The notes beneath the pieces were generated by a model. That model searched no databases and was not told the origin of the DNA. It was given only the letters and a program-made list of their open reading frames with translations. From positions 10,240 to 74,239 of the forward strand of contig JAIORC010000188.1 in the NCBI GenBank assembly GCA_021108335.1: 64,000 nt of DNA, read 5' to 3'. Position numbers and translations under genes: made by a program. This DNA comes from Phycisphaerae bacterium (GTDB taxonomy: Bacteria > Planctomycetota > Phycisphaerae > SM23-33). Of the stretch, positions 14,751 to 20,977 are shown in pieces; position 1 is the first letter of the stretch, and every line of letters starts with the position of its first letter.

Positions 14751-16151
14751 ATGCAAATGCGTCGTATTCCGATTTATCTCGTTGGGTGTATGGTAATTCT
14801 GGCTGTTGGTTGGGCGGGAGCGGCTCCGCCGAAAGTTGCCATAGCCGGCAAGGCGAAGCCCGTCAAAGGCGAATCGGAGCAGGAGCGACGGGCCTGTCAG
14901 AGACGGTTGCAGGCGGAACTCAAGAATATCCCGAGTTCGCCGGGCCGGGCCAATGACATTTTGACGCTGCTGGCGAAACAGGCGCAAATGAAGCTGAAGG
15001 TGGATTGGGCTTCCCTGGCGGCCCAGAACATCAAGAAAGACAAGACGGTCAAGGTCAACCTCGCCGGCTGCACGATCGGGCAAGGGCTGGATATTCTGGT
15101 AGCCGCCTGGAGCGAGGATGGGGCGAATATGGGCTATTACATTGACCGCGGCGTGATTCACGTTACGACCGCCACGGCGATGAGGCGGATATCCCTGGTG
15201 CGGACATACGACGTTTCCGGCCTGATCCGCCTGGGCACGGATAAGCCGGTACAGACGGGTATCGCATCTCCCACGGAGCTTGGCGAACCTATATACCGCT
15301 ACGATTACCGCGACAATAGCGGCGGCAGCATTTTTGGCGATGAGGACGATTCGAAGTCCCGGAGGATGGACAAGATGATGCCGTTTACGGCAGAGGGCAT
15401 CGTGCGCATTCTCCTGGAAACGGTAGAGCCCAACACTTGGGGCACGCGTGGGTCGATTTGTCCGATGGGGCCGATTCTTCTGATCGATCAAAGCATTGAC
15501 GCCCACGGAAAGATCGAAGCGTTGCTGGCGATGCTCCGCAGGCAGTTCAGGGTTTCGGGACTCATGCGGACGCTGACGGTGCAGGCCCAATGGATCTGGC
15601 TGGACGCGAAGGTCTATACGAAACTGACTTCCGGCAAGGCTGTGGTTGCGTCGGTAGTATCCGACGACATTCTCAAAGCCTCCAAGGTAGCGTATCAGGG
15701 CGTAGCAAAGTGCTTTAACGGCCAGGTGGGAAATATGACGTCCGGTAACGCTCAAAATGTTGTGCTTGGTTATGACCCGGTAGTTACGGATCATATAATA
15801 GCATACCGGCCGATCGTCGAGATGGTGCAATGGGGCGCGGTTTTGGATTTCAAGGTGATGCTCGTCCGCAACGGCAAGCAGGCCAACGTAGAACTGCGGA
15901 GCGTCCTCAGCGAACCCCGCCATCCTGCGCGGGAGAAAAAATCGCAGATTATTCTTACAAAGATGGCGACAAAAGCCACTCCTGGAAGTTTGCGCATTAC
16001 CAACCTGGATTTCGATATCCAGACCTGCCGGGCGGCGATGGCTATTCCGCTGGACAAGTTTGTGCTGGCTGGGGGTATGAGCGGTACAAAGGACAACCCG
16101 GCGGGCAAGATTATGTGTCTGGTGGTCAAGGTTTCGGCTTCGAGTAAATAA
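14751..16151 (+). CDS. Secretin-like outer-membrane protein (N0/STN-like, N1 and compact secretin-like C-domain), paralog 1
   Basis: Signal peptide; STN/N0-like block (ILTLLAKQAQMKLKVDWASL...GYYIDRGVIHVTT); N1-like block (RTYDVSGLI...IVRILLETVEPNTWG...IEALLAML); C-terminal IPLDKFVLAGGMSG...LVVKV resembling the secretin hallmark. RBS aaaggag. Confidence 0.45.
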   Translation: MQMRRIPIYLVGCMVILAVGWAGAAPPKVAIAGKAKPVKGESEQERRACQRRLQAELKNIPSSPGRANDILTLLAKQAQMKLKVDWASLAAQNIKKDKTVKVNLAGCTIGQGLDILVAAWSEDGANMGYYIDRGVIHVTTATAMRRISLVRTYDVSGLIRLGTDKPVQTGIASPTELGEPIYRYDYRDNSGGSIFGDEDDSKSRRMDKMMPFTAEGIVRILLETVEPNTWGTRGSICPMGPILLIDQSIDAHGKIEALLAMLRRQFRVSGLMRTLTVQAQWIWLDAKVYTKLTSGKAVVASVVSDDILKASKVAYQGVAKCFNGQVGNMTSGNAQNVVLGYDPVVTDHIIAYRPIVEMVQWGAVLDFKVMLVRNGKQANVELRSVLSEPRHPAREKKSQIILTKMATKATPGSLRITNLDFDIQTCRAAMAIPLDKFVLAGGMSGTKDNPAGKIMCLVVKVSASSK

Positions 16152-16184
16152 CTTTTTGAGTAATCCGAAAGAAAGGGTGTAGAT

Positions 16185-20600: not shown

Positions 20601-20977
20601 AAGATTCGCCGCTAGGGAAAGTTCACAAGCTGGAGATGGATTTGCGGGTCGTGCTTCGTTGGGATACTGCCGGCGTCGATGTCAATCTGAGGGTCGAGAG
20701 GGAAGACGCGATAGCGTCAGGCCGGCGAAGTCGAAACTTTACCGAAGGCTACGGCCCGGAGGAATTCCTGCTGAAAAAGGCCGTTGCCGGCGGCAGTTAT
20801 GTAATCAAGGCTGTCTACCAAGCCGACAATGACGTCGAGTTGACCGGCCCGATTACGGTTCGCGTGGATATCTACAAAAACTTCGGCCGCCCCGGCGAGA
20901 CGCATAAAACCATTACCGCCCGCCTGAACAAGACAGGCAAAGACGTTAAACTCACCGAGGTCAATTTTGCCAATTGA
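17663..20977 (+). CDS. Large secreted VIT-vWA domain protein with disordered Pro/Glu/Ser-rich linker and C-terminal DUF2135-like beta domain
   Basis: Signal peptide; VIT domain ([19 protein letters not shown]...[42 protein letters not shown]); vWA domain ([10 protein letters not shown]...); low-complexity tract around 19.5-19.99 kb; C-terminal ~150 aa resembling DUF2135, which commonly accompanies VIT/vWA. Confidence 0.7.
   Translation: [1104 protein letters not shown]

Follow-up and report, generated by a model that had tools for sequence, protein, structure and literature searches.

In type II and type III secretion, in type IV pili and in filamentous-phage export, giant gated pores in the outer membrane are formed by secretins, which are usually found through the Pfam family PF00263 and through their operon partners. 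The secretins belonging to type II and to type III secretion systems (T2SS, T3SS), type IVa pili and Tad systems (GspD, InvG, PilQ, RcpA/CpaC and the Amuc_1098 PilQ-type proteins) are 550-800 residues long and carry extra N1/N2, AMIN, BON or S domains. Here we describe two adjacent genes for much shorter secretin homologs, followed by a gene for a large VIT-vWA protein, in a stretch of 64,000 nt (hereafter the window, to which all coordinates refer) of a Phycisphaerae bacterium (GCA_021108335.1, contig JAIORC010000188.1, positions 10,240-74,239 of the forward strand). Gene A (14751-16151, + strand; 466 residues from its ATG; NCBI K8S55_08170) encodes an A-type short secretin homolog with a Sec-type signal sequence. 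Gene B (16185-17627, +; 480 residues; K8S55_08175) encodes a B-type homolog that is probably a lipoprotein, and gene C (17663-20977, +; 1104 residues; K8S55_08180) a secreted protein with VIT, vWA, disordered linker, tetratricopeptide repeat (TPR)-like and DUF2135 regions. The public records of this metagenome-assembled genome hold the same three gene calls, all labelled "hypothetical protein". An earlier reading of the DNA, the original prediction, had described these three open reading frames (ORFs) on one strand correctly and had taken them as a possible minimal export and adhesin system. Our data favor a different reading, which we consider probable: A and B are tandem, paralogous and diverged short secretins that act as orphan pores, C is a separate ITIH-like protein, and the triplet is no conserved module.

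In pIV of the phages f1/M13 (PDB 7OFH), an N0 domain (residues 1-88) and an N3 domain (108-172) precede the secretin domain (175-405) (PMC8563730). A and B share this N0-N3-barrel plan. In A, an N0/STN-like domain (~residues 60-146, 14928-15188, +; boundaries inferred from the alignment to B) is followed by an N1/N3-like ring-building domain with an insertion and the motif RTYDVSGL (~residues 148-268, 15192-15554, +) and by a reduced secretin-type barrel domain with the end IPLDKFVLAGG...MCLVVKV (~residues 273-466, 15567-16148, +). B shows the same succession, with an N0/STN-like domain (residues 50-152, 16332-16640, +), an N1/N3-like ring-building domain with a disordered insertion at 184-208 (residues 155-275, 16647-17009, +) and a reduced barrel domain of nine predicted strands with a disordered loop at 402-426 and the end IPLDKPVLVGG...LYLVVEV (residues 278-480, 17016-17624, +). 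The two proteins are paralogous (30% identity over 412 columns, E 1e-49), and A scores 587 bits against the hidden Markov model (HMM) of the family. The motifs RTYDVS.L and IPLDK.VL.GG...LVV.V, which the original prediction had singled out, are present in both proteins and stand out as the best-conserved features among remote relatives. It is also true that A and B are shorter than GspD or PilQ, but their length is not anomalous since pIV has the same domain plan. Compared with pIV, A and B are chromosomal instead of phage-borne and have no pI-like ATPase partner; their barrel spans about 200 residues versus 231 and is without the conserved segment at the C-terminal end of PF00263, their N3-like domain contains a long, often Gly-rich insertion, and the identity amounts to about 16%. 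BfpB of the type IVb bundle-forming pilus (PDB 9U5S) is a lipidated secretin, as B may be according to its putative lipobox. The gene for BfpB, however, is part of the bfp pilus operon, and the protein cooperates with BfpG and a pilus machine, whereas A and B have no such neighbors. GspD, InvG, PilQ and RcpA/CpaC, finally, pass the PF00263 threshold and are linked to ATPase, platform and pilin genes, neither of which holds for A and B.

A and B belong to the secretin superfamily as strongly diverged short homologs. This assignment is based on a profile alignment, on the Pfam matches of relatives and on the fold of B. In hhalign, a profile of seven family members aligned with 99.5% probability (E 1.4e-22) to P0008, a 928-residue TPR protein which is itself over the PF00263 threshold (E 3e-14), and the alignment covered the N0-like, N1-like and C-terminal domains. 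In individual Pfam scans of 60 barrel-bearing relatives, PF00263 was matched by 18 (best E 2.6e-6) and STN by three, and no other Pfam family was found among them; the relatives P0003 and P0007 scored 20.2 and 16.8 bits against PF00263 (cutoff 27.5). Among NCBIfam models, the Amuc_1098 PilQ-type family alone gave a match to either protein, a weak one between its N-terminal half and B (E 2e-6). An AlphaFold2 model of B reached a predicted local distance difference test score (pLDDT) of 71.8 overall and of 75-92 in the folded parts, with a predicted template modelling score (pTM) of 0.53. Its 39 best PDB matches in Foldseek were all secretins, with BfpB at the top (E 4e-11) and pIV among the best, and BfpB was also the sole PDB sequence match of the 60-member profile (E 1.5e-3). 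The barrel domain is linked to solved secretin cores by remote homology and by fold, and an N0 (STN-like) and an N3-type ring-building domain stand directly before it. The secretin-like call of the original prediction was borne out by these results.

The end of the barrel deserves a separate comment. After the VLVGG motif, A and B have only about 22-25 residues left, the last of which form a single strand (LYLVVEV in B). P0008 has the same short C-terminal end, so the shortness is a trait of the clade and not a truncation. The missing segment (PF00263 positions ~124-169) is presumably PxLxxIPxxGxLF of the Pfam consensus.

As to localization, A and B would both be exported by Sec. The N-terminus of A is an ordinary hydrophobic signal sequence, in which an internal LVGC is ambiguous. 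B starts with a signal peptide (residues 1-23, 16185-16253, +) whose lipobox VAG↓C (residues 20-23, with Cys23), read from the sequence by eye in agreement with the original prediction, has its counterpart in LAG↓C of the B-type ortholog at locus L001 (see below). B may therefore be lipidated and may reach the outer membrane unaided, as lipidated secretins such as BfpB do; HxcQ is likewise a lipidated, self-piloting secretin. A gated ring in the outer membrane would arise by oligomerization of the barrel domains, with A and B either forming a homo-oligomer each or sharing one mixed ring, and the N3-type and N0 domains would project into the periplasm. The inner-membrane partner of pIV makes its contact at N0 (PMC8563730). 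The ring of A and B could then provide a machine or cargo whose genes lie elsewhere with a duct for exit or entry. Two aromatic residues of B, W287 in the first barrel strand and Y471 in the last one, are conserved in at least 90% of 60 family members, and together might provide an aromatic girdle comparable to that of F184/Y394 in pIV (PMC8563730). Cys329 of B (17169-17171), in the motif GRIxCFxGQ, is conserved to the same degree (at least 90% across the 60 members) and has no conserved partner cysteine.

The tandem of A and B recurs once only, at locus L001, where three paralogs stand in a row. A and copy 2 of this locus are reciprocal best matches (180-181 bits). The best match of B is copy 3 (228-255 bits), which in turn scores better only with its own in-genome paralog, copy 1. 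The counterparts of A and B in L001 have the same order and the same orientation. Since A and B pair with different L001 copies in the same order, the duplication appears to predate the split between this genome and L001, and the copies would have been kept adjacent in these two genomes. The stand-alone relatives P0078, P0083 and P0138 are equidistant from A and B. The B-type ortholog (L001:2557-3908) is split, its signal peptide being located in a 72-residue ORF in another frame, which points to a frameshift or an assembly error.

Elsewhere, mini-secretins, as we call the short homologs, are found in diverse surroundings. At L002-L005 the mini-secretin directly follows genes for a TetR regulator and a membrane-fusion adaptor with CzcB_C/YknX_C matches (L002:6940-10862 and L005:2757-6670; also L003 and L004). 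No inner-membrane pump or TolC-type gene was found in this adaptor locus. The arrangement may be a sign that in the outer membrane some members of the family are the partners of adaptor proteins. The gene at L011 has no co-directional neighbor, the adjacent genes shown being convergent and one of them encoding a NACHT/WD40 protein. At L014 the mini-secretin lies between an unrelated enzyme and what we take, from a fragment, to be a TrmH-type RNA methyltransferase, at L015/L016 it is monocistronic, and at L097-L100 it stands between the Suf operon and a redoxin gene. The contigs of P0078 and P0083 were too short to inform on context. No VIT gene and no T2SS or type IV pilus (T4P) genes were found in the six mini-secretin contexts other than our own, and in none of the seven independent loci, window included, was there linkage to an inner-membrane machine of the T2SS, T3SS, T4P, Tad or phage-assembly type.

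These proteins are part of a very large, unannotated planctomycetal clade of reduced, orphan secretin homologs. An exhaustive HMMER search retrieved 24,772 representative clusters at E<=1e-3 and 3,593 at E<=1e-30, counts that include proteins matching the N-terminal modules alone. The view of a rare family, which a word-indexed homolog search with its 6-8 relatives had suggested, was overturned by this search. Among the 152 best profile matches, 62 had a barrel domain: 28 were of the N0-N1-barrel type, 32 had N1 and barrel without N0, and two departed from these layouts by repeating the N1 and/or barrel unit. The other matches, about 90, were (N0-N1) repeat proteins without a barrel; a repeat family built of the periplasmic module alone thus exists beside these secretin homologs. 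These repeat proteins have 500-1800 residues and 2-8 tandem units of an N0-like plus an N1-like domain, examples being P0009 (1655 residues), P0010 and P0011. All source-named members are annotated as "hypothetical protein", and all organism-named members are from Planctomycetota. No account of short planctomycetal secretins turned up in our literature search.

Protein C is of a different kind. Its VIT β-domain (residues 28-264, 17744-18454, +), recognized by PF08487, by the model and by the match to ITIH1, scored 77.7 bits against PF08487 (residues 50-158; cutoff 26.5, E 9.4e-22). The vWA domain that follows (18515-19027, +) had no match to Pfam VWA. It was confirmed by the fold match to ITIH1 together with the invariance of the residues of the metal ion-dependent adhesion site (MIDAS), D290, S292, S294, T359 and D385 (DxSxS...T...D), in 45 C homologs; further fold matches were the BatA-like structure 4jdu, the CLCA1 VWA domain and integrin I domains. 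In the model of C (pLDDT 73, pTM 0.69), the first ~600 residues superposed on human ITIH1 (PDB 6FPY) with E 1.2e-21 over 599 columns. A disordered linker rich in Pro, Gly and charged residues (619-780, 19517-20002, +; pLDDT 28-44) leads to a TPR-like region of helical repeats (783-972, 20009-20578, +), for which the model helices, weak TPR matches in Pfam at 845-890 and fold matches to CTPR proteins speak. The C-terminus is a β-sandwich, probably of the DUF2135/YfaP_C type, with a conserved GYGPEE (992-1101, 20636-20965, +). C itself remained below threshold for PF09906 (19.2 bits, cutoff 22, E 1.4e-3), the region being a confident β-sandwich in the model, whereas nearly all C homologs carry precomputed PF09906 matches. 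The earlier description of C as a secreted VIT-vWA protein with a long disordered linker and a DUF2135-like end agrees with these features. C shares VIT and vWA with full MIDAS with ITIH1 and with bacterial VIT-vWA proteins, be they BatA-like or sorted by sortase or PEP-CTERM signals, but adds to them the 160-residue linker, the TPR-like helices and the β-sandwich. No PEP-CTERM or sortase sorting signal was found in C, its matches to the sorted VIT families spanning VIT alone and lying far below the cutoffs. The putative PF09906-type β-sandwich of C, which its homologs carry too, would be shared with YfaP. In E. coli, yfaP belongs to the yfaS alpha-2-macroglobulin cluster; no alpha-2-macroglobulin gene was found near C. 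Relatives of C, proteins of about 1000 residues, form a large family in Planctomycetota, Verrucomicrobiota and Spirochaetota, and our literature search found no paper mentioning DUF2135. With its signal-like N-terminus, C would be exported by Sec, and it most likely acts alone, as a MIDAS-dependent ligand-binding protein outside the cytoplasm. Here it might just be co-transcribed with A and B.

Is C nevertheless tied to A and B? A lineage-specific operon in which the 120-kDa VIT-vWA adhesin-like protein is exported or displayed through an outer-membrane pore or anchor made of A and B would be in line with several features of the locus. The three genes are co-directional and separated by 33 bp (A-B) and 35 bp (B-C). 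A promoter/terminator scan, whose counts were at chance level and which is informative solely on this point, showed no terminator-like site in either gap; A, B and C are probably co-transcribed. C has a signal peptide and domains of the adhesin type, and the same order A-B-C is present in a second assembly of the same organism. The distribution of the families, however, spoke against a common function. A metagenome scan returned at least 577 relatives of C, of which the best 80 loci were analyzed (in 45 of them the flank reached at least 3 kb upstream, and in 45 at least that far downstream). The family HMM detected no mini-secretin ORF in these 80 loci, nor did one lie within 8 kb of the three best long-contig homologs, that is, in none of 83 C-family loci. 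No recurrent neighbor of C emerged either, the largest cluster of neighbors being found in four of the 80 loci. The VIT-vWA-DUF2135 family consists of widespread stand-alone genes without conserved neighbors and is not secretin cargo; its members evidently work without such neighbors in all three phyla. Conversely, the closest orthologs of A and B, at L001, precede a gene for a methyltransferase lipoprotein instead of a VIT gene, and none of the six other mini-secretin contexts shows the pairing. The window contains no energizing inner-membrane component. Since mini-secretin and VIT-vWA genes are not co-conserved elsewhere, a conserved module is unsupported: the triplet is a lineage-specific adjacency, and the lack of co-conservation at other loci is an outcome that the original prediction had itself named as refuting its proposal. 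We therefore regard a lineage-specific functional operon of A, B and C as unlikely.

The reading that we prefer, A and B as diverged secretins forming orphan pores, with C as a separate protein, has to be weighed against several observations that count against it. Neither A nor B had a Pfam match even at E<=1, so the gathering score of PF00263 was not reached. No complete secretin domain was found, as the PF00263 matches of relatives stop at about position 122-129 of 169, and the barrel domain falls about 30 residues short of its counterpart in pIV. The model of B was built from only seven sequences and as a monomer, and closure of the reduced barrel into a double-walled ring of the 12-17-mer secretin type is putative. 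Partner machinery for A and B was identified at none of the loci examined. This sample was small (seven loci), genome-collection scans having recovered only the two known loci. The tight spacing without a terminator, finally, leaves room for a lineage-specific link to C. A and B might be secretin-derived proteins that form no pore and serve as a periplasmic or outer-membrane scaffold, ring or binding module, for example as partner of an adaptor or as part of an envelope structure. The barrel without its conserved C-terminal PF00263 segment would fit such a role, as would the TetR regulator and membrane-fusion adaptor encoded right before the mini-secretin in one sub-lineage. The barrel-less (N0-N1)n proteins among the top matches imply, moreover, that the N-terminal module has roles independent of a barrel. 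We regard this as a minor possibility. Quite improbable, in our view, is a more far-reaching proposal, according to which lipidated B and non-lipidated A would build a heteromeric minimal ring without a machine of the T2SS or T4P type, the family would provide the channels of planctomycete-specific envelope structures (e.g. crateriform structures or conduits for macromolecules or polysaccharides), and C would figure, in this lineage, as cargo or attachment. We know of no heteromeric secretins. An origin of A and B as remnants of a secretin from a filamentous phage (pIV-like) or another mobile element is suggested by their size and N0-N3-barrel plan, which are those of pIV (PMC8563730), and by the place of pIV among the best fold matches. 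This idea is essentially refuted: PHROGs gave no matches and no phage genes were seen in the window, the GC content is even across the region, A and B are flanked by housekeeping genes, and the huge family has members in stable chromosomal contexts. A phage or defense origin was accordingly rejected, PADLOC being without matches as well.

The housekeeping genes flanking A and B encode pyruvate kinase, MnmA, AMMECR1 and an ABC transporter. Other genes of the window code for ABC transporters, for a heparinase-like protein and for a LacI regulator, and a long series of them encodes glycoside hydrolase (GH) proteins and proteins with carbohydrate-binding module family 9 (CBM9). The original prediction had stated that neither a T2SS/T4P ATPase or platform gene nor a pilin gene is nearby. 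This was right for the ATPase and the platform, of which there is none anywhere in the 64 kb, but not for the pilin: a prepilin/pseudopilin-type gene (6818-7528, +; 236 residues; N-terminus GFTLIELLVV, Pfam N_methyl) lies about 7 kb upstream of A. It is the sole pilin-like gene in the window and sits inside a glycan cluster, between genes for a Laminin_G_3 protein and a heparinase II/III-like protein and downstream of that for the LacI regulator. A glycan-degradation island extends over 29860-56595 (+). It contains large paralogous genes for proteins of ~980-1055 residues with an N-terminal CBM9 and a weak GH42M-like region (29860-32826, 32874-35816, 41192-44263, 48779-51751 and 53428-56595, all +), along with genes on the same strand for a 595-residue CBM9-only protein (51834-53621), tandem paralogs of 856 and 858 residues (35950-41080) and a 1446-residue GH2+CBM9 protein. 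Two adjacent ORFs of 394 and 397 residues (56743-59125, +) had no Pfam match at E<=0.001. On the opposite strand, a 324-residue protein (59964-60938, -) shows a weak motif of matrixin-type metallopeptidases and, at its C-terminus, a PEP-CTERM sorting signal, each of them scoring close to or under the threshold.

In conclusion, the significance of this locus rests in the family and in the A/B pair and not in the triplet. A clade of secretin homologs of the size of pIV escapes the thresholds of Pfam and NCBIfam and is annotated as "hypothetical protein" only. The clade is unusual in that it lacks the conserved C-terminal secretin segment and in that its genes usually stand alone, outside secretion-system operons. 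The tandem of an A-type and a B-type protein, one of them putatively lipidated, raises the possibility of heteromeric secretins. Planctomycetota have an unusual envelope, and their traffic of macromolecules is poorly understood. If proteins of the A and B type form pores, surveys of secretion systems in this phylum would undercount its outer-membrane channels.

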